A stretch of 64,000 bases of DNA, taken from positions 1,302,001 to 1,366,000 of the forward strand of contig NC_089430.1 in the NCBI RefSeq assembly GCF_026210795.1, written 5' to 3'. A program made the position numbers and the translations under genes. Shown here in pieces: positions 39,310 to 55,102 of the stretch; the first letter of the stretch is position 1; each line of letters opens with the position of its first letter. This DNA is from Rhizophagus irregularis. Its lineage: Eukaryota. Under the pieces are notes generated by a model. That model made no database searches and was not told the DNA's origin. It saw nothing but the letters and a program-made list of their open reading frames with translations.

Positions 39310-40931
39310 ATGGATAAAATTAAACTAAGTGATGATGTATTTGAACGAATAAAAGATTTTGTCAATTGGAATTTGACTAAAGAACAAAATTCATTAATTG
39401 ATAAACTAATAACAGACGAAAAATTAAAAGAACTTTATAAAGAACATGGTTTATGTAAAGAATGTAAGCAGCCTAATACTAGTTATTATAGTTGTTGGCC
39501 ATGTATTTTACAACATTTTAAACAAAATTTCAAAAATTGGACAAGTGGAAATCATGATATTGATGAATTTATTAAAAAAGTACAATTAAAAGCTAAACAT
39601 GTAGATCAAATCGTAGAGTGGATTGAATATGATAAATTTGAAGATGTTGAATATTTAGCAAAAGGGGGATTTGGAACTACTTTTAAAGCAGTTTGGAAAG
39701 ATGGAGATATTCGTGGATATGATGATCAATGGAAAAGAAAAGGTGAAACAAAAGTTGCTTTAAAATGTTTATATAATTCACAAGAAATTACAGCAGATTT
39801 TTTAAAAGAAGTAAGATATTTTCTTATGAATCTTCATTAGTCTTTATAAATATTAAACTAACTATAATTTTATTTTAAGATTGAATCAAATATTTTAGTA
39901 TATTCTTCTGGTTGGACAGTTCGTTGTTTTGGTATTACCAAAGATCCAAAAACAAATAATTTTATGATGGTAATGGAATTAAAAGATGGTAATTTAAGAC
40001 AACATTTAAATAATAATTTCATTTCGCTGAGTTGGGACCAAAAATTGTGGAGTTTACAAAGTATTGCAAATGGTCTTAAAGATATTCATAATAAAGGATT
40101 AATCCATCATGATTTTCATTGTGGGAATATATTAAGTAATTTTGGTCAAAAAGCTTTTATTACCGATTTAGGATTATGTCAACCAGCAAATGCCAAATCC
40201 TCTCAAAATAGTAATAAAGAAATATATGGAGTATTACCTTATGTAGCACCAGAAGTTTTAAGAGGAAAAGAATATACACAAGCAAGTGACATTTATGGAT
40301 ATGGAATTATTGCATATGAAATTTGTACAGGTTTCCCTCCTTATTATGATATGGCTCATGATGAATTCTTAACAATGAAAATTTGCAATGGGCTGAGGCC
40401 AAAATCCAATTATAAAATTCCTCAATTAATTTTTGACATCATTAATCAATGTTGGGATGCTGACCCTTTAAAACGACCTAATGCGGGTGAATTGCAAGAA
40501 TTAACATATAAATTATATAATGATGTCTTTAAAGTGGATTCTGTAATTTATGGACAAGTTAAAGAAACAGATGATATTAATAAAAAGTTATTGTCTTCAA
40601 TAGTTCAATCACCATCATCATCTACCAGTAATCTCTTATATACAACACATCCTCAAGCAGTTTATACAAGTAGACTTTTGGATTTTAAAAATCTTCCAGA
40701 ATCCAAAAATGTGGACAATGATGATTTAGAATATTCAGGTAATTTTAATTAAAAATAATTATTTAAATCTATTTAGAGTAATAATAATTATTCTTTTATT
40801 TTACAGTTTCCTTAAAAATGGATTTTACTAAACTTGATATTAATTCTAAAGGTAATTTCTTTGTATGTGATTTTTTGATTTATTAAATTTTAATTAAGCT
40901 ATTTTTTTTTGTTATAGATGAAGGAAATTAA
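39310..40931 (+). CDS. Protein kinase (tyrosine-kinase-like type expanded in Glomeromycotina); exons 39310-39810, 39880-40738, 40807-40851, 40918-40931
   Basis: AKGGFG, VALK, HHDFHCGNIL, TDLG, LPYVAPE motifs; N-terminal CKEC..CWPC and NFKNWTSGN..ID.FI..WIEY; HPQAVYTSRLLDF tail; all introns GT-AG and in phase. Confidence 0.92.
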
Positions 40932-42849: not shown

Positions 42850-43500
42850 TAAGAAATAAATAGTGATAAAAAAAAGAAAAATTGCAATGATAAAATGAGA
42901 AAAATGCCAATAAAAAGCAAAAAAGGAAATAAGAAGATATAACGTTAATAATAGTGAAAGAAAAAAAGGAAACAAAAAGAAATGATGTGGATGGGATGAA
43001 AAGAAAAGTAATGAAAAAAAGTGTAAAAAGGATAAAAGGAAGTGTAAAAAGATGATAAGGTGAAAGGAAAGTGAAAGGGAAATAAAAAAGAAGTGAAAAG
43101 GGTGATAGAAGATGAAAAAAAAGTGAGAAAGAAAATAGTAAACAAAAAGGAAGGATGATAGGAGACGAAAAAGAAGTAAAAAGGATGATGATGAACAAAG
43201 GGAAGTGAGAAGGAAGTGTAAAGGGTGATAGGGGAAGAAAAGTAAGAGAGAATAATAATGAAAAATAAAAAAAATAAAGGATGATGGAGAATAAAAAAGA
43301 AGTAAAAAGGAGAAGGAAATAAAAAAATAAAGGGCAAAAAAGAAGTGAAAAGAATGATAGAAGACGAAAAAAAGTGAAGAAAAAACAATCAAGAACACCA
43401 CTCATAAAAAAAGGAATAAAGAAAAGACTGATTAGTATTATTTCAAAATAAAGTGAAAAAGTAATAAAAGCAAGAAACATATAAAAAGTAATAAAACAAG
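42850..43500. repeat. Purine-rich (A/G) low-complexity tract
   Basis: Nearly C-free A/G tract that generates F/L/S-rich spurious ORFs in all three minus frames. Confidence 0.8.
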
Positions 43501-43590
43501 AAAGAAATACCTCAAATAAAAAGAAGCCATCCCATTATTTCAGGAAAAAAATAAAGTTAGCGTTAGTAATAAAGTAAAGAGTAATTAAAT

Positions 43591-43984
43591 TAGAGGTTGG
43601 AACTGGTTAAGCTTAACCGGTTAATTAACCGGTTAAAATGCTGAAAATATTTGTAATTCTGGCCAAATTTACAGTGCCGGCCAGAATTATAAATCACGGG
43701 ACTTCGGAAAAAAGTTTAGCCACTAGGTAAGATATCAACGGACCATTCGGACCAAGTGGTGAAATTTTTGTGTTATATAAAATTCATAATGCGGGTCGAA
43801 ATCCATAGTGCCGGCCAGAAATTTTGGCCTGAATTTCGTCTTTCAGCTAGAGTTTCGTTTCGATAGTTAGAGTTTTGGTCTGGCCTAATTTTGGCCGGGA
43901 TTAAAAAATATATTTGATGCTAATCCTGGCCGAATTTTAATGCGGACTAGGATCGAGTTTTAACCGGTTAATTAACCGGTTAAG
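43591..43984. mobile_element. MITE-like remnant with palindromic inverted ends
   Basis: CTTAACCGGTTAATTAACCGGTTAAAA at 43612-43638 and its reverse complement ending at 43984; internal GCCGGCCAGAA repeats; no TSD identified. Confidence 0.55.
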
Positions 43985-44553
43985 ATTTTAAGACTTTTTT
44001 AAATACAACAAAATAATGGAAAAACCAAAAAAATAAAGTCATATTCAAGTCGAAATAGCACTGCAATAAAAAAAAACAAACATTTATCAAATGACGCGAT
44101 GATCATGTTTGTGTAGCAAATCAGAAAATATTAAATTTATTACATAATCAGGGGTCGCCAATTACATTTTAATATAAAAAAAAAATAAAAATTTGAATTT
44201 GTAATTTACGTAATTTACTGACCTGACCAGAATATGAAAACTGAATTTATAACTTCGTATTGCCTTACGTATTAAGAAATTTTTTTTGTTTTATTTGTTT
44301 TATGAATTTTGCTGTGCAACAATGTGGCTTGATGACTTTGATAATTGACATACGTTTTAGACATATATGCAAAATTTGTTTGTTATACATACTTGTACTT
44401 ATGATCAATGCTTTTGAGCATAATGCATTTTGCATAAATATTATTACCATATATACCTATACTAATAAAGGCGTTTAATAATAAAATAAAGAAAACAAAG
44501 ATATTTACATTATCTTTTCCAGTCAGAAAGAATTTTAATATAATTATATAGTA

Positions 44554-47500
44554 ATGGCTTATAGAGGTAATAATCATATATAATATAAACATTTAATACA
44601 GTTAGAATTCTAATATTTTTAAATAAATTTACAATATAATAAAACTGGTTTTTGGCAATATTGAATTTGAAGGAAGCAGTTCTGAAGAATTTGAAGGAGT
44701 TGGCTCTGAAGAATTTGAAGGAAGTAGCTCTGAGGAATTTGAGGAATCTAAAGGTATATTAAACATGCTAAAATACTAAATTTTTATTTGTAAATACATT
44801 TAAATATTATCTATAATTATACCTTATATAATATACAAATATAGCTCGTAAGTTAATAGGTTATCTTATAATTGAATAATGATAAATTACTCATCATTTT
44901 TATTACTTCATGTAATTAAATAATTCATTTAATGATTAATAATACTATAGTCAGTAAGTTATTAGTTATTTAAATTTTTAATTCTTTACTTTGTTTATTC
45001 TACATAATATTCAAATAACTAAATTTTTTATTTATAATTATTAATAATTAATTGTATTACAGATGGTAAGTTACAATATAATATTTATTTTGCTTAATAT
45101 TTTATATAACTCAACTAATTATATTCTTAATTTAAACAACTAGATTGTAAGTGATATATTTAATTTACAGTAAATATTTTTATATTATATTTATATTTAA
45201 CTAATAATTAATTATAATACTAGGGCGTAAGTTATAGATGTCTATATATCTATTATATCTATTATTTATATATTTTAAACTAACCAAATTCATTATTTAA
45301 AAAAATTATTTTGTAATTTATTTTAGTTCGTAAGTTATAAGTTATTTATTTAATTCTATTATTACTTATTGTTACATACAATATTTACATATATATTATA
45401 TAATTTAAACTAACTAAATTCTTTATTTGAAAATTATTTAATAATATAGGGAGTAAGTTATTTATTTAATTCTATTATTACTTATTATTATAATATTACA
45501 TATAATCTAAACTAATTAAATTCTTTATTTAAAAAATTATTTAATAATATAGAGAGTAAGTTATTTATTTAATTCTATTATTACTTATTGTTATAATATT
45601 TGCATATAATTTAAACTAACTAAATTCTTTATTTAAATAATTATTTTGTAATTTATTTTAGTTCGTAAGTTATAAGTTATTTATTTAATTCTATTATTAC
45701 TTATTGTTATTACATATAATTTAAACTAGTAATTAAATTCTTTATTTGAAAATTATTTAATAATATACTAGGGAGTAAGTTATTTATTTAATTCTATTAT
45801 TACTTATTATTATAATATTTACACATAATTTGAACTAATTAAATTCTTTATTAAAAAAATTATTTAATAATATAGAGAGTAAGTTATTTATTTAATTATA
45901 TTATTAGTACTTATTGCTATAATATTTACATATAATTTAAATTAACTAAATTTTTTATTTAAAAAATTATTTTTGTAATTTATTTTAGTTCGTAAGTTAT
46001 AAGTTATTTATTTAATTCTATTATTACTTATTGTTATAATATTTACATATAATTTAAATTAACTAAATTCTTTATTTATAAAATTATTTTATACATAGAT
46101 GGTAAGATTACACCACAACTAATGTAGGATGTCAGGAAAATAGATGTCAGGATTTTGTCTGACATTGATTTATTCAATTCTATCATTACTTATTGTTACG
46201 TTACAATACTTACATATAATTTAAACTAATTAATTCTTTATTTATAAATTATTTTATAGATGGTAAGTTATTTATTTAATTACTTATTGTTATAATATTT
46301 ACATATAATTTAAATTAACTAAATTCTTTATTTAAATAGATCGTAAGTTATAAGTTATTTATTTAATTCTATTTTACTTATTGTTATAATATTTACATAT
46401 TTAAACTAATTAATTATTTTGTAATTTCTTTTATTTCTTTTAGTTGGTAAGTTATAAGTTATTTATTTAATTCTATTATTACTTATTGTTATAATATTTA
46501 CATATAATTTAAACTAACTAAATTCTTTATTTATAAAATTATTTTATAGATGGTAAGTTATTTATTTAATTCTATTATTACTTGTTGTTATAATACTTAC
46601 ATATAATTTAAACTAACTAAATTCTTTATTTAAAAATTATTTAATAATATAGAGCGTAAGTTATTTATTTAATTCTATTATTACTTGTTGTTATAATATT
46701 TACATATAATTTAAACTAACTAAATTCTTTATTATTATTTTGTAATTTACTTTAGTTCGTAAGTTATAAATTATTTATTTAATTCTATTATTACTTATTG
46801 TTATAATATTTATATATAGTAATATAAACTAACTAAGTTCTTTATTTAAAAATTATTTAACAATATAGGGAGTAAGTTATTTATTTAATTCTATTATTGT
46901 TTATTGTTATAATATTTACATATAATTTAAACTAACTAAATTCTTTATTTAAAATAATTTTTTTAGTTGGTAAGTTATAAGTTATTTATTTTAGCTCTAT
47001 TATTACTTATTGTTATAACACTTACATATAATTTAAACTAACTAAATTCTTTATTTAAATAGATTGTAAGTTATAAGTAATTTATTTAATTCTATTATTA
47101 TTTATTGTTACAATATTTACATATAATTTGAACTAACTAAATTCTTTATTATTATTTTGTAATTTACTTAAGTTCGTAAGTTATAAGTTATTTATTTAAT
47201 TCTATTATTACTTATTGCTATAATATTTGCATATAGTATTTTAAACTAACTAAGTTCTTTATTTAAAAATTATAGGGTGTAAGTTATTTATTTAATTCTA
47301 CTATTATTTATTGTTATAATATTTACATATAATTTAAACTAAATAAATTCTTTATTTTAAAAAATTATTTATAGATGGTAAGTTATTTATTCAATTCTAT
47401 TATTACTTATTATTATAATATTTACATATAATTTAAATTAAATAAATTCTTTATTTTAAAAAATTATTTATAGATGGTAAGTTATTTATTTAATTCTATT

Positions 47501-50500
47501 ATTACTTATTATTATAGTATTTATATATAATTTAAACTAAAAAAATTCTTTATTTAAAATTATTTAATGATATAGATTGTAAGTTATTTATTTAATTCTA
47601 TTATTATTTATTGTTATAATATTTACATATAATCTAAACTCTTTATTTAAAAAATTATTTATAGATGGTAGCCTATTTATTTAATTCTACTATTACTTAT
47701 TGTTATAATATTTACGTATAATCTAAACTAACTAAATTTTTGATTCAAAAATTATTTATAGATGGTAAGTTATTTATTTAATTCTATTAGGTGCTGTCAG
47801 ATATTACCTAATATTTTAGGGGAGGGGGTAACTAAAGATCTTAGGTTACATACAAGACTATATAAGCAATTGTATATATAACATATCTTACCTAGGGGAG
47901 GGGGGTAAGCTCTTATATTAAAGTGATATTAGGTAATATCTGACATCTGACAGTGCCTTATTACTTATGTTATAATATTTATTATATTTACATATAATTT
48001 AAACCTAACTAATTCTTTACTTATAAAATTATTTTGTAATTTTTTTTTAGTTGGTAAGTTATAAGTTATTTATTTAATCTATTATTAATTGTTATAATAT
48101 TTACATATAATTTAAACTAAATAAATTCATTATTTTTATAGATGGTAAGTTATTTAATTAATTCTATTATTACTTATTGTTATAATATTTACATATAATT
48201 TAAACTAACTAAATTCTTTATTTAAAAAATTATTTAATAATACAGAGTGTAAGTTATTTATTTAATTCTATTATTATTTATTGTTGTAATATTTACATAT
48301 AATTTAAACTAACTAAATTCTTTATTTAAAAAAATTATTTATAGATGGTATGCTATTTATTTAATTCTATTGTTACTTATTATTATAATATTTACATATA
48401 ATTTAAACTAACACTTATAAAATTATTTAATAATATAGAGAGTAAGTTATTTATTTAATTCTATTATTACTTATTTATATAATATTTATATATATGTTAA
48501 ACTAATAAATTCTTTATTTAAAAAATTATTTAATAATATAGAGAGTAAGTTATTTATTTAATTCTATTATTACTTATTGTTATAATATTTGCATATAATT
48601 TAAACTAACTAAATTCTTTATTTAAATGATTATTTTGTAATTTATTTTAGTTCGTAAGTTATAAGTTATTTATTTAATTCTATTATTACTTATTGTTATT
48701 ACATATAATTTAAACTAATTAAATTCTTTATTTGAAAATTATTTAATAATATAGGGAGTAAGTTATTTATTTATTAATTCTATTATTACTTATAATTTTT
48801 ACATATAATTTAAGCTAACTGAATTCTTTTATTTAAAAAATTATTTAATAATATAGAGAGTAAGTTATTTATTTAATTCTATTATTACTTATTGGTATAA
48901 TATTTACATTTAATTTAAACTAACTAAATTCCTTATTTAAAAAAATTATTTAATAATATAGAGAGTAAGTTATTTATTTAATTCTAATATTACTTATTGT
49001 TATAATATTTGCATATAATTCAAACTAACTAAATTTTTGATTTAAAAATTATTTAATAATATAGGGAGTAAGTTATTTATTTAATTCTATTATTATTTAT
49101 TGTTATAATATTTACATATTATTTAAACTACAACTAAATTCTTTATTTAAAAAATTATTTTGTAATTTCTTTTAGTTGGTAAGTTATAAGTTATTTATTT
49201 AATTCTATTATTACTTATTGTTATAATATTTACATATAATCTAAACTAACTAAATTCTTTATTTAAGTAGATTGTAAGTTATAGTTATTTATTTAATTCT
49301 ATTATTACTTATTGTTATAATATTTGCACATAATTCAAACTAACTAAATTTTTAATTTAAAAATTATTTAATAATATAGGGAGTAAATTATTTATAAAAT
49401 TCTATTATTACTTATTGTTATAATATTTACATATGATTTAAACTAACTAAATTCTTTATTTAAAAAATTATTTTATAGATAGTAAGTTAGTTATTTAATT
49501 CTATTAGGTGCTGTCAGATATTACCTAATATTTTAGGGGGAGGGGGTAATTAAAGATCTTAGGTTACATACAAGACTATATAAGGAATTGTATATATAAC
49601 ATATTTTACTTAGGAGAGGGGGTAAGCTCTTATATTAAAGTGATATTCGGTAATATCTGACAGTGCTCTTATTACTTATTGTTATAATATTTACATATGA
49701 TTTAAACTAACTAAATCTTTTTTTAAAAAATTATTTTATAGATAGTAAATTATTTATTTAATTCTATTATTACTTGTTGTTATAATATTTTTATATAATT
49801 TAAACTAACTAAACTCTTTATTTAAATAGATCGTAAGTTATAAGTTATTTATTTAATTTATAATTTAAACTAACTAAATTCTTTATTTAAATAATTCTTT
49901 AATAATATAGGAAGTAAGTTATTTATTTAATCTTATTATTACTCATTGTCATAATATTTGCATATAATTTAAACTAACTAAATTCTTTATTTAAAAAATT
50001 ATTTAACAATACAGAGTGTAAGTTATTTATTTAATTCTATTATTACTTATTGTCATAATATTTGCATATAATTTAAACTAACTAAATTCTTTTAAAAAAT
50101 TATTTTGTAATGTTCTTTAGTTGGTAAGTTATTTATTTAATTCTATTGTTATTTATTGTTGTGATATTTACATATAATTTAAACTAACTAAATTCTTTAT
50201 TTAATAAATTATTTTTTAGATAGTAAGTTATTTATTTAATTCTATTATTACTTATTGTTATAATATTTACATATAATTTAAACTAAATAATTTCTTTATT
50301 TAAAAAATCATTTTGTAATTTCTTTTAGTTAGTAAGTTATAAGTTATTTATTTAATTCTGCTATTATATTTGTTATAATATTTACATATAATTTAAACTA
50401 ACTAAATTCTTTATTTAAAAATTATTTAATAATATAGAAAGTAAGTTATTTATTTATTAATTCTATTATTACTTATAATTTTTACATATAATTTAAGCTA

Positions 50501-53500
50501 ACTGAATTCTTTTATTTAAAAAATTATTTAATAATATAGAGAGTAAGTTATTTATTTAATTCTATTATTACTTATTGGTATAATATTTACATTTAATTTA
50601 AACTAACTAAATTCCTTATTTAAAAAAATTATTTAATAATATAGAGAGTAAGTTATTTATTTAATTCTAATATTACTTATTGTTATAATATTTGCATATA
50701 ATTCAAACTAACTAAATTTTTGATTTAAAAATTATTTAATAATATAGGGAGTAAGTTATTTATTTAATTCTATTATTATTTATTGTTATAATATTTACAT
50801 ATTATTTAAACTACAACTAAATTCTTTATTTAAAAAATTATTTTGTAATTTCTTTTAGTTGGTAAGTTATAAGTTATTTATTTAATTCTATTATTACTTA
50901 TTGTTATAATATTTACATATAATCTAAACTAACTAAATTCTTTATTTAAGTAGATTGTAAGTTATAGTTATTTATTTAATTCTATTATTACTTATTGTTA
51001 TAATATTTGCACATAATTCAAACTAACTAAATTTTTAATTTAAAAATTATTTAATAATATAGGGAGTAAATTATTTATAAAATTCTATTATTACTTATTG
51101 TTATAATATTTACATATGATTTAAACTAACTAAATTCTTTATTTAAAAAATTATTTTATAGATAGTAAGTTAGTTATTTAATTCTATTAGGTGCTGTCAG
51201 ATATTACCTAATATTTTAGGGGGAGGGGGTAATTAAAGATCTTAGGTTACATACAAGACTATATAAGGAATTGTATATATAACATATTTTACTTAGGAGA
51301 GGGGGGTAAGCTCTTATATTAAAGTGATATTCGGTAATATCTGACAGTGCTCTTATTACTTATTGTTATAATATTTACATATGATTTAAACTAACTAAAT
51401 CTTTTTTTAAAAAATTATTTTATAGATAGTAAATTATTTATTTAATTCTATTATTACTTGTTGTTATAATATTTTTATATAATTTAAACTAACTAAACTC
51501 TTTATTTAAATAGATCGTAAGTTATAAGTTATTTATTTAATTTATAATTTAAACTAACTAAATTCTTTATTTAAATAATTCTTTAATAATATAGGAAGTA
51601 AGTTATTTATTTAATCTTATTATTACTCATTGTCATAATATTTGCATATAATTTAAACTAACTAAATTCTTTATTTAAAAAATTATTTAACAATACAGAG
51701 TGTAAGTTATTTATTTAATTCTATTATTACTTATTGTCATAATATTTGCATATAATTTAAACTAACTAAATTCTTTTAAAAAATTATTTTGTAATGTTCT
51801 TTAGTTGGTAAGTTATTTATTTAATTCTATTGTTATTTATTGTTGTGATATTTACATATAATTTAAACTAACTAAATTCTTTATTTAATAAATTATTTTT
51901 TAGATAGTAAGTTATTTATTTAATTCTATTATTACTTATTGTTATAATATTTACATATAATTTAAACTAAATAATTTCTTTATTTAAAAAATCATTTTGT
52001 AATTTCTTTTAGTTAGTAAGTTATAAGTTATTTATTTAATTCTGCTATTATATTTGTTATAATATTTACATATAATTTAAACTAACTAAATTCTTTATTT
52101 AAAAATTATTTAATAATATAGAAAGTAAGTTATTTATTTATTAATTCTATTATTACTTATAATTTTTACATATAATTTAAGCTAACTGAATTCTTTTATT
52201 TAAAAAATTATTTAATAATATAGAGAGTAAGTTATTTATTTAATTCTATTATTACTTATTGGTATAATATTTACATTTAATTTAAACTAACTAAATTCCT
52301 TATTTAAAAAAATTATTTAATAATATAGAGAGTAAGTTATTTATTTAATTCTATTATTACTTATTATCATAATATTTGCATATAATTTAATCAAACTTAA
52401 TTATTTATTTAAAAATCATTTTATAATTTCTTTTAGTTGGTAAGCTATAAGTTATTTATTTAATTCTATTATAACTTATTTTCATAATATTTACATATAA
52501 TTTAAACTAACTAAATTCTTTATTTAAAAATACAGAGAGTAAGTTATTTACTTAATTCTATTATTACTTATTTTATAATATTTGCATATAATTTTAAACT
52601 AACTAAATTCTTTATTTAAAAAATTATTTTAATAATATAGAGAGTAAGTTATTTATTTAATTCTATTATTATTTATTGTTATAATATTTACATAAAATTT
52701 AAATTAACTAAATTCTTTATTTAAAAAAATATAGATGGTAGGTTATTTATTTAATTCTATTATTACTTTATTTACATATAATTTAAACTAATTAAATTCT
52801 TTATTTAAAAAATTATTTAATAATGTACTAGAAAGTAAGTTATTTATTTAATTCTATTATTATTTAATGTTATAATATTTACATATTATTTAAACTACTA
52901 ACTAAACACTTTATTTAAAAATTATTTTGTAATTTCTTTTAGTTGGTAAGTTATTTATTTAATTCTATTGTTGCTTATTGTTATAATACTTACATATAAT
53001 TCAAATTAACTAAATTTTTTATTTAAAAAATTATTTTGTAATTTCTTTTAGTTAGTAAGTTATAAGTTATTTATTTAATTCTATTATTACTTATTGTTAT
53101 AATATTACATATGATTTAAACTAACTAAATTCTTTATTTAAAAAATTATTTTGTAATTTCTTTTAGTTGGTAAGTTATAAGTTATTTATTTAATTCTATT
53201 ATTACTTATTGTTATAATATTTACATATTATTTATTAAACTATTAACTAAATTCTTTATTTATAAAATTATTTTATAGAGAGTAAGTTACTTATTTAATT
53301 CTATTATTACTTAATGTTATAATACTTACATATAATTTAAACTAACTAAATTTTTTGTTAAATAAATTATTTTTTAGATAGTAAGTTATTTATTTAATTC
53401 TATTATTACTTATTTTTATAATATTTACATATAATTTAAACTAACTAAATTATTTATCTATAAAATTATTTAATAATATAGCTTGTAAGTTATTTGTTTT

Positions 53501-55102
53501 TTCTATTGTTATATACTTTATAAATATTTATTGTTAATTGAATTATATTTATATAAAAATAAAATTTCTATTACTTTAGCTGGTAAGTTGTGAAATATAG
53601 GTTATTATTATATACATTTGTACAAAAACTAAGACATTTATTATTAAATTTCTATTTAAATTTTAGCGTAAGTGTTGATTTTAATCTTAAATTTTAGTGT
53701 AATTTTTAATATAAAACTTCAATATTAATTTTAATTGTTAAATTTATATATAGATATGAAAAAAGTGGAGATGCAATTATGGATAATTTTATTTTGGAAA
53801 ATAAATTAAAATGGTTTCCTTATGATGAATTTGAAAATGTTGAATATCTTGATAAAGGAGGATTTGGTACTATATACAAAGCTATTTATAAATATAATAA
53901 AGTAGTTCTTAAATGTCATAATAATTTATTAAGTGAAAATTTAAATGAATTTTTAAATGAAGTATGATAATCATATATTATTTATTTTTTTAATTTGATT
54001 TATGCTTTATTTATATTAATATGTATTATTACTTTTTTATAGTGGGAATATCATAAAAGTTGTTTAAGTTCACATGATATTATTTATTTTTATGGGTTTA
54101 CAAAAGACCCAGATACTTTAAAATATATGGTAGTAATGGATTATGCAAATAAAGGTAATTTAAGAGGAAACTTAACAAGAATAATCAAAAGAGGTTGGAA
54201 TAAAAAATTATATATGTTATTTGGAATTATTTCTGGACTTAATGATATACATAAACAAAATCTTATTCATTGTGATATTCATGATGGCAATATTTTAAAT
54301 CATAATGAAAGTAAAGTTTATATTAGTGATTTAGGATTATGTAAACCTTTAAAATCATTTTTGAAAAAATATGATATTTATGGTGTTATACCATTTATGG
54401 CACCAGAAGTTTTAAGAGGCAATTCTTATACTCCGGCTAGTGATATATATAGTTTTTCTATGATTATGTGGGAATTTATTTCTGGGGTACCACCATTTAA
54501 TAATAGAGCACATGATTTACAACTTAGTTTAAGTATTTGTGAAGGTGAACGTCCTGAAATTATTGAAAATACTCCACAATGTTATGTAGATTTGATGAAA
54601 AAGTGTTGGGATGAAAACCCATTAAAAAGGCCATCTTCTAAAGAAGTGTTGAATATTATTAAAGCATGGATTTTTCGTCCAGATAATGTGTTTGTTGAAT
54701 ATATTAATGAAGAATTAAAATGCAATATTATTGAATTTATAAATGCGCCAATTGGGCATAACAATAATCTTGCTACTGAATCTCATCCACAAGCATGTTA
54801 TACAAGTCGCTTACTTGATTTTACTAGTAGACAGTTGAATGAAAATCTTGAAAGTAGAAATTCACAAGCTTTTTATTCAATTCAATCTACTAGTGAAAAA
54901 GTGAATGAAGAAAGTGAAGATTCACAAGCTAGTGTAAAAGTGAATGAAATGCTAGTAAGTAAAAATTTGGATGATTGCATATTTGATTTGAAGTCATTAG
55001 GTATGTAGTATAATATATGAAAAGAATTAATTTTGCAAATTATTTATTGTAAATTAAGTTTATTTATTTGATTATTTAGATATTAAAGCAGATAAAAAAT
55101 AA
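44554..55102 (+). CDS. Protein kinase with an N-terminal region encoded by 81 three-nt microexons plus one 1-nt exon (~88 exons in total)
   Basis: Exon 1 44554-44566 (MAYR+G); acidic exon to 44753 (EFEGSSSEEFEGVGSEEFEGSSSEEFEESK, phase 1); microexons 44845-53582; 1-nt exon 53667; kinase exons 53754-53961, 54043-55000, 55080-55102 (KGGFG, VVLK, HCDIHDGNIL, SDLG, PFMAPE, HPQACYTSRLLDF). The kinase part is secure; the 5' model is inferred from splice signals and frame closure. Confidence 0.8.
47790..47957. mobile_element. MITE with TTA TSD (PIF/Harbinger, Tourist-like) in an array intron, copy 1
   Basis: Ends GGTGCTGTCAGATATTACC / ...CTGACAGTGCC; inserted in ATTCTA-TTA-TTACTTA with TTA duplicated. 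Confidence 0.8.
49507..49668. mobile_element. Same MITE, copy 2
   Basis: Same sequence, same position within the intron unit, TTA on both sides. Confidence 0.8.
51190..51352. mobile_element. Same MITE, copy 3
   Basis: Near-identical to copy 2, 1683 bp downstream (part of a higher-order duplication). Confidence 0.8.

Follow-up and report, generated by a model that had tools for sequence, protein, structure and literature searches.

The 64,000-nucleotide (nt) stretch of Rhizophagus irregularis DNA analyzed here (contig NC_089430.1, positions 1,302,001 to 1,366,000; hereafter the window, in whose numbering coordinates are given, with all gene features on the forward strand) contains a protein kinase gene with an array of intron-like units upstream of its kinase exons, and between this array and the first kinase exon a single C, at position 53667, is flanked on both sides by what look like complete introns. 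As judged from the DNA sequence, this C is most likely a genuine one-nucleotide exon, namely the original first base of the kinase exon, which would have been cut off by the gain of the intron 53668-53753. We put the probability that C53667 is really spliced in, at least in expressed paralogs of its class, at about 0.55, and the copy in the window may be in decay even where paralogs keep the architecture functional. Should the C indeed be spliced in, the few one-base exons known from fungi would gain another member, and the birth of this exon would be traceable because paralogs with and without the extra intron coexist, which bears on how ultra-short exons arise.

A single base between two predicted introns

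The C is embedded in the motif TTTTAG|C|GTAAGT at 53662-53673 (the sequence reads ...aaattttAG C GTAAGTgttg...), donors GTAAGT begin at 53583 and 53668, and acceptor AGs end at 53666 and 53753. A preliminary description of this DNA had given both the motif and the flanking introns (53583-53666 and 53668-53753) correctly. The intron 5' of the C (84 nt) runs GTAAGT...AAACTAAG...TTTTAG, with AAACTAAG, by eye, as its branch point, and the intron 3' of the C (86 nt) has, likewise by eye, a YTRAY-type branch point, TTAAT. The base is therefore surrounded by full acceptor and donor signals and by intron-sized stretches with branch points, both of which match ordinary introns of Rhizophagus in size and signals.

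The C also reconciles the reading frame. The upstream exon and the triplets left between the array units leave one nucleotide, kinase exon 1 (53754-53961, beginning A|TAT GAA AAA AGT GGA...) needs two, and the predicted exon C (53667-53667) would form the middle base of the codon G-C-A, encoding alanine; this phase arithmetic, too, had been worked out correctly before. When the pieces were joined by coordinate with a script, from ATG 44554 to 55008, the chain including the C had a length divisible by three and gave an open reading frame (ORF) of 497 amino acids from ATG 44554 to the kinase stop, and omission of the C gave a length of 2 modulo 3 with the first stop at amino acid 125, 18 codons into the kinase exon. 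The predicted spliced order at the kinase boundary is ...CTT CTG C ATATGAAAAAAGTGGA, and any number of array triplets can be removed without loss of frame. The earlier idea that the C might act as an on/off or quality-control switch is speculation without support, the only fact bearing on it being that skipping breaks the frame.

In the window, counting both strands, YAG-N-GTAAGT occurs once against 0.74 expected, and 52 of 100 shuffles contain at least one match. The junction at C53667 is regarded as more than a chance match because of its position, its strand, its conservation in relatives and its phase fit.

To find such relatives, metagenome contigs were scanned with kinase exon 1, which gave 20 loci; the same scan of genome contigs and viral contigs gave chance matches only. 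Among the 20 loci, the two closest, L001 (62% amino acid identity) and L002 (67%), are the only ones of the same subfamily with upstream DNA, and both have tttAG-A-GTAAGT about 85-95 nt upstream of the acceptor, followed by A TAT GGA and A CAT GGA, respectively. The motif is thus kept at the same position in all three subfamily loci with upstream DNA, the window included, and conservation of AG-N-GTAAG in paralogous kinase loci, which the preliminary description had proposed as a check, is found in two of two related loci. When the three loci were aligned, 11 of the 12 columns of the block TTTAG-N-GTAAGT were invariant and only N varied (C, A, A); invariant columns made up 32 of 77 in the interior of intron 1, 40 of 79 in the interior of intron 2, and 34 of 47 at the start of the kinase exon. 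Such persistence beyond that of the exon is not expected of an internal motif without function.

This alignment bears on the possibility that 53583-53753 is removed as a single 171-nt intron, or larger array pieces in one step, in which case the C would be skipped, the transcript would be out of frame and either prone to nonsense-mediated decay or non-coding, and AG-C-GT would be a by-product of a tandem origin. A 3' and a 5' splice site one nucleotide apart are sterically unlikely to be recognized together, given the footprints of U1 and U2AF, and a second, degenerate motif in intron 2 (ttttAG-T-GTAATT near 53697) suggests local duplication. We nevertheless consider removal as a single intron improbable, as an unused motif is not expected to be invariant in 11 of 12 columns amid intron sequence that is 42-51% invariant, as skipping gives the early stop in an otherwise intact kinase ORF, and as one-nucleotide exons are spliced in Arabidopsis and Fusarium.

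The same two loci speak to a sequence error or a recent one-nucleotide indel in a run of A, whereby the real start would be ATG 53756 (ATGAAAAAAGTGG) and, with one more A, a product MKKSGD... would need no upstream exons. ATG 53756 does lie in the +1 frame and is directly followed by a run of six A, but L001 (ATATGGAACTAGTGGA) and L002 (ACATGGAACTAGTGGA) lack the A-run and agree with the window in frame relation and in the AG upstream, and paralogs have F/Y-G-K-S-G-N after varied residues rather than M-K-K, which makes an error of this kind very unlikely.

Probable origin of the orphan base

Many family proteins in the databases are read-through models or plain ORFs and so spell the genomic sequence upstream of the motif FGKSGN. 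Five of them (P0015, P0017, P0042, P0075, and P0090) read ...LNSYLNLE|FGKSGN, and window intron 1 in the matching frame reads ...LNFYLNFS, its 3' end being homologous to the tail LNSYLNLE; genes of this class would thus lead from an intron-1-like end straight into AG|AA TTT GGA without a second intron. Eight others (P0033, P0036, P0078, P0167, P0170, P0180, P0183, and P0194) read ...IIQIYR|FGKSGN, which corresponds to an end like that of intron 2 followed by AG|A TTT GGA, and the end of window intron 2 reads ...LIVKFIYR|YEKSGD. The intron 53668-53753 accordingly appears lineage-specific, being present in the window, in L001, in L002, and in the eight read-through paralogs and absent from the five. 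Because the AA that opens the exon in the five-protein class corresponds to N plus A in the eight-protein class, the difference is most simply read as the gain of an intron between the first and the second base of the kinase exon.

According to the mechanism that we propose, the extra intron 53668-53753 would have arisen one base past a 3' splice site that was already there and would have orphaned the C. By intron definition, the usual mode for short introns in fungi, each of the flanking introns would be recognized independently, and as the two could not be engaged at once, they would be removed in sequence; removal of one would regenerate a normal splice site for the other, similar to what happens at recursive splice sites, and one base would stay behind to complete the codon G-C-A, whereas a transcript that skips the C would be frame-shifted, with a stop 18 codons into the kinase exon. 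Gain or duplication of introns only a few bases away from splice sites already present would likewise give rise to the 3-nt micro-exons of the array. Recursive splice sites, or ratchet points, are juxtaposed AG|GTAAGT sequences in long Drosophila introns, where stepwise removal regenerates a splice site and 0 nt are left in the mRNA. In the present gene 1 nt separates AG and GT at C53667 and 3 nt separate them in the array, and these would stay and be translated; a 0-nt AG/GT junction was not found in any array examined, in the window or in the metagenome loci.

A degenerate second copy of the junction (aaattttAG-T-GTAATT, 53690-53700) lies within the intron 53668-53753, about 30 nt past the first, and hints that a local tandem duplication was involved when this intron arose.

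A parallel case is seen at the other end of the array. Read together, G 44753, the triplet CTC (44845) and the next intron spell ARKLIGYLIIE, the tail of eight paralog models (ESK-ARKLIGYLIIE), in whose genes CTC would thus be contiguous with the N-terminal exon and form its end, and three other paralog models read ESK-GILNMLKY, which corresponds to the window intron 44754-44844. From these tails, CTC appears to have been split off the N-terminal exon by the extra intron 44754-44844, which adjoins an existing splice site, in the same process as C53667.

The upstream array and the integrity of the gene

Between the N-terminal exon and the kinase exons, positions 44845-53582 are occupied by units about 105 nt long (GTAAGTTA...ACTAAC...YAG), with a spacer of exactly 3 nt after every unit, the last triplets being CTT at 53482-53484 and CTG at 53580-53582. 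Each unit has the look of a complete intron: it has GTAAGTTA and a branch point of the ACTAAC type and closes with a T-rich end plus YAG. There are 75 strict AG-NNN-GTRAG junctions and seven with weak donors, and YAG-NNN-GTAAGT occurs 71 times against 0.54 expected, as befits a tandem repeat. Translated, the array would contribute a charged linker of low complexity in which K, R, D, E, and I abound. In the literature searched, on Rhizophagus micro-exons, introners and kinase tandem-repeat introns as well as on tandem micro-exons, no description of arrays of 3-nt micro-exons was found. This array is the more unusual object, and the one-nucleotide exon ties it to the coding frame.

Fungal introner-like elements are near-identical, multiplying introns that are dispersed across unrelated genes. 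The array units resemble them in that many near-identical copies of about 100 nt carry an intact GTAAGT, branch point and YAG and place new introns beside old ones. Unlike introners, the array units stand in tandem within kinase genes, and copies were seen only in tandem upstream of kinase exons, in the window and in 10 metagenome loci. It is possible, though we hold it for doubtful, that the 5' region of the kinase gene is a self-expanding array of autonomous introns in which units of about 105 nt each leave 3 nt, copy number sets the length of the K/R/D/E/I-rich linker between the acidic module and the kinase, and micro-exons (the 1-nt exon and CTC) are born where an intron copy lands 1-3 nt from a splice site. 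If true, this would be a previously undescribed way of exon creation and of protein-length evolution by tandem intron duplication, recurring in two or more kinase subfamilies among arbuscular mycorrhizal fungi.

The second of these subfamilies is represented among the metagenome loci. Eight of them (L003-L005, L007, L010, L012, L015, and L017) carry arrays of a related but diverged unit with 3-nt spacers, 28 of which are found in L012. The six with an intact last intron (L003, L004, L005, L007, L010, and L012) belong to a different kinase subfamily, whose exon starts AT AAT AAA and needs one nucleotide, and none of these six arrays has a 1-nt spacer; in L015 and L017 the last intron has a long insertion. 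Counted over the arrays examined, strict junctions have spacers of 3 nt in 142 cases (75 in the window and 67 in the loci) and of 2 nt in one case (L015), and, once overlaps with AGN triplets are set aside, 1-nt spacers occur three times, each time at the final junction, in loci in which the kinase exon requires two bases. This distribution fits a frame constraint, with only two independent lineages behind it. The consensuses of the two unit families share GTAAGTTATTT, the branch-point region TAATTTAAACTnAACTAA and the T-rich end plus TAG, with indels between these blocks, which is suggestive only as regards conservation of splice signals. The second array family replaces a CxxC region that L006, L008, L009, and L016 encode contiguously.

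Locus L001 is rearranged or fused, as its positions 1-245 encode the C-terminal part of another kinase domain (...EAKEVDNNLPI) that runs into the middle of an array-type intron unit, after which two triplets, the 1-nt junction and the kinase exon follow. The ORF upstream in L001 would be brought into frame by the weak donor GTGATA plus CAT, TTG and A, but it hits a TAA six codons on and the match was treated as a possible coincidence (1 in 3).

That the N-terminal module, the array and the kinase form one gene architecture, as the preliminary description had assumed, follows from annotated paralogs, as P0012, P0015, P0043, and P0090 each join an EFEGS...ESK N-terminus and FGKSGNxIDDFI...kinase in one protein. 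In the window, the acidic exon with EFEGS repeats (44673-44753) is homologous to MALNNDKVSGNIEFEGS...ESK of P0012, P0015, P0090, and P0043 and ends ...GAA TCT AAA G|GTATAT in phase 1; 44673 is its sole frame-compatible acceptor, and the frame itself is open from 44627. A putative first coding exon (44554-44566, ATGGCTTATAGAG, encoding MAYR plus G) is followed by GTAATA, and homologs in paralogs start MALNNDK...; its use at this locus is uncertain, since the homologous stretch downstream has in-frame stops up to 44626. Annotated linkers DGK, ARK, ACK, MSK, and LSK in front of FGKSGN were rejected as evidence for splicing, as at least some are read-through or forced (DGK = AAA GAT GGT AAG, ARK = GCN CGT AAG).

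Several observations weigh against C53667 being an exon in use. The motif YAG-N-GTAAGT alone is not rarer than chance, the conservation among three loci could partly reflect common descent and thus effectively one origin, and the comparison of five-protein and eight-protein classes rests on protein read-through models rather than on paralog DNA, so that intron gain is to be read as a probable course only. The N-terminal exon is damaged in comparison with the paralogs, and only a hypothetical intron (44567-44672), whose 3' end is poor, would avoid its in-frame stops up to 44626. If donors are restricted to strong ones, the array gives an in-phase TAG at codon 63 (AGT then AGA), which disappears, leaving the frame open over 497 codons, if the intervening micro-exon ATG (48345-48347), with its weak donor GTATGC, is used. 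Not every array maintains an intact frame, as that of L012 has an in-phase TAA and that of L015 a 2-nt spacer. The window array is moreover young or homogenized, and no signal of splice-site selection can be read from it: 59 units (85-125 nt) were extracted and aligned, 47 of them distinct, and nearly every column was 80-99% identical, the splice signals being no better conserved than the rest of the unit. Finally, the public model P0225 takes the internal ATG 53781 as its start and leaves the upstream module aside, and the locus is at best weakly expressed in three polyA RNA-sequencing runs with the same species label.

When these runs were mapped on 53440-55100, 160, 159, and 184 reads were obtained, of which 9, 11, and 14, respectively, were at least 99% alike, and paralog letters were found in almost every read at many positions of the exons (at 54288, 10 of 10, and 13 of 14 in run X21). 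Depth over 53720-53775 was 0-0.16, and among the rows listed for the three runs there was no joint or loose end at 53753/53754 and no read with the C junction.

Stops in phase 1 were compared with arrays of shuffled triplet order: the window array has one stop against 2.89 expected (P = 0.155) and L012 one against 2.43 expected (P = 0.20), neither of which is significant. In phase 0 the window array is open and that of L012 contains two TGA triplets, and phase 2 is full of stops. The preliminary description had taken the phase arithmetic at C53667 as independent support for a coding array; this support is weak, given that a phase match has a prior of 1 in 3, that strong donors leave the in-phase TAG, that P is about 0.16, and that L012 has its TAA and L015 its 2-nt spacer.

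Much of this would be accounted for if the 5' module were a relic, an intron-derived satellite in which the C is unused, with the kinase starting from the internal ATG 53781 if it is made at all, or if the locus were a young pseudogene. P0225 starts MDNFI and so do the closest paralog models P0001-P0004, almost no reads specific to the locus are found in the three runs, the N-terminal exon has in-frame stops, the array an in-phase TAG unless the weak donor GTATGC is used, and array units contain insertions resembling miniature inverted-repeat transposable elements (MITEs); sister arrays have a stop or a 2-nt spacer. On the other hand, the kinase ORF is intact over 390 codons, homology to paralogs reaches upstream of the ATG as far as the acceptor (YEKSGDAI vs. 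FGKSGNxI), most paralogs have no methionine there (IIDDFI), so that the family needs an upstream start, and the AG-N-GTAAGT block is better conserved than the exon. A relic is on balance unlikely, if a rival to be reckoned with, and we prefer the reading of C53667 as a one-nucleotide exon.

Variation within the array is confined to the last 12 or so columns of the unit plus the triplet, and three unit subtypes can be distinguished, which differ mainly there. About 1684 bp were recently duplicated within the array, as the triplet series 49065-50645 recurs at 50748-52329. The MITE-type-looking insertions lie in units at 47790-48010, 49500-49660, and 51190-51350, have the inverted ends ggtgctgtcagatattacctaatatt ... 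aatatctgacagtgc and stretch the affected 'introns' to 200-350 nt; one of them bears a GGG-GTAAGC pseudo-junction.

The kinase family, its public models and known one-nucleotide exons

Downstream of the C, kinase exon 1 encodes YEKSGDAIMDNFILENKLKWFPYDEF...GGFGTIYKA... and contains the in-frame ATG 53781 used by public annotation; YEKSGDAIMDNFI, read in the kinase frame, is the window counterpart of FGKSGNxIDDFI in paralogs. It is followed by an intron (53962-54042), across whose junction P0225 is identical and at whose border, 53961, RNA reads from paralogs end, by kinase exon 2 (54043-55000), which holds the catalytic core and the C-terminal tail and matches the Pfam families PF07714 (7e-34) and PF00069 (1e-32), by a 3' intron (55001-55079), beyond which P0225 ends ...KSLDIKADKK, and by the last coding exon (55080-55102, AT ATT AAA GCA GAT AAA AAA TAA). 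With PF07714/PF00069, an FGKSGNxIDxFI...WIPY lead-in and an HPQAxYTSRLL tail, the gene belongs with the Rhizophagus TKL-type kinases that have an EFEGS-repeat N-terminus. Kinase relatives number 1315 at E <= 1e-20, the best, from R. irregularis and R. diaphanus, being 83-90% identical; among the matches listed, the best-scoring come from R. irregularis, R. diaphanus, and R. clarus, plus a few unnamed JGI/NCBI entries.

P0225, from R. irregularis DAOM 181602 (= DAOM 197198), is identical to the window translation over its first 79 residues, so that the locus comes from R. irregularis DAOM 197198 or a near-identical strain. Its C-terminal 64 residues agree with the window translation, by eye, up to the short last exon past the 3' intron. 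The model P0225 splices 54097 (GTTTAC) to about 54829 and thereby removes the whole catalytic core; among the read joints listed for the three RNA runs, none supports this 54097-54829 junction. In the R. diaphanus model P0037, triplets are read in phase 0, the N-terminus is frame-shifted and kinase exon 1 is skipped. Stretches rich in G, I, L, M, and R that resemble chained 3-nt exons occur in the models P0037, P0043, P0027, P0129, and P0138; gene predictors do chain 3-nt micro-exons, sometimes wrongly. Among the shorter proteins (n = 102), no ORF spans the N-terminus, the linker and the kinase, and all jgi/ena ORFs run into introns (...LNEFLNEV) and are thus genomic. In public models of the family, the start is placed at an internal ATG, introns are read through, or the N-terminal frame is shifted (P0037, P0225). 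These mis-modelled N-termini most likely arise because predictors cannot place exons of 1-3 nt, and the databases are probably wrong about the true N-termini of this Rhizophagus kinase family, which is large and expanded.

One-nucleotide exons had been called very rarely documented in the preliminary description, which is true, although fungal precedents exist in Fusarium CYP621A (PMC12940212) and in Coprinopsis cinerea, with 13 such exons (PMC12230235). The one-nucleotide exon of Fusarium CYP621A was identified by phase-1/phase-2 logic and confirmed with SRA reads, and it resembles C53667 in belonging to a fungal gene, in lying as AG-N-GT within an apparent single intron, in reconciling phases 1 and 2 and in having a motif conserved in homologs (PMC12940212). 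An intron-poor CYP621A homolog shows the base contiguous with its exon, whereas the counterpart here is deduced from protein models; N is always G (AGGGT) and lies in a conserved catalytic motif in CYP621A, whereas N is C or A and lies in a low-complexity linker at the present locus; and splicing is confirmed by reads in CYP621A, whereas C53667 is predicted from sequence and closes an array of 3-nt micro-exons (PMC12940212). In Arabidopsis APC11 a constitutive one-nucleotide exon is spliced (PMC4674806). It likewise lies between two ordinary introns and was missed by annotation, but it belongs to a plant gene, was demonstrated experimentally with GFP fusions and is not associated with a repeat array (PMC4674806). 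Long-read annotation of C. cinerea revealed 13 exons of 1 nt, 57 of 2 nt, and 27 of 3 nt (PMC12230235). These counts show that fungal spliceosomes handle exons of 1-3 nt, whose omission creates premature stops, and the micro-exons are scattered singly, whereas in the kinase gene dozens would stand in tandem (PMC12230235). The base C or A, the position in a linker, the existence of paralogs showing the origin, and the closing of a tandem array of 3-nt exons set C53667 apart from the known one-nucleotide exons.

A second kinase paralog lies at 39312-40930 on the same strand, with 40-48% amino acid identity; its N-terminal CxxC...CxxC region is contiguous and joined to WTSGNHDIDEFI, and it has neither an array nor an intron at the corresponding point. 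The G+C content of the window is 13-17% across 44-54 kb and 25-34% elsewhere. Upstream of the kinase gene, an element of about 370 bp at 43590-43990 has the palindromic repeat AACCGGTTAATTAACCGGTTAA on both sides, and a purine-rich low-complexity tract with a 123-bp period is located just upstream of this element, at 42860-43400.

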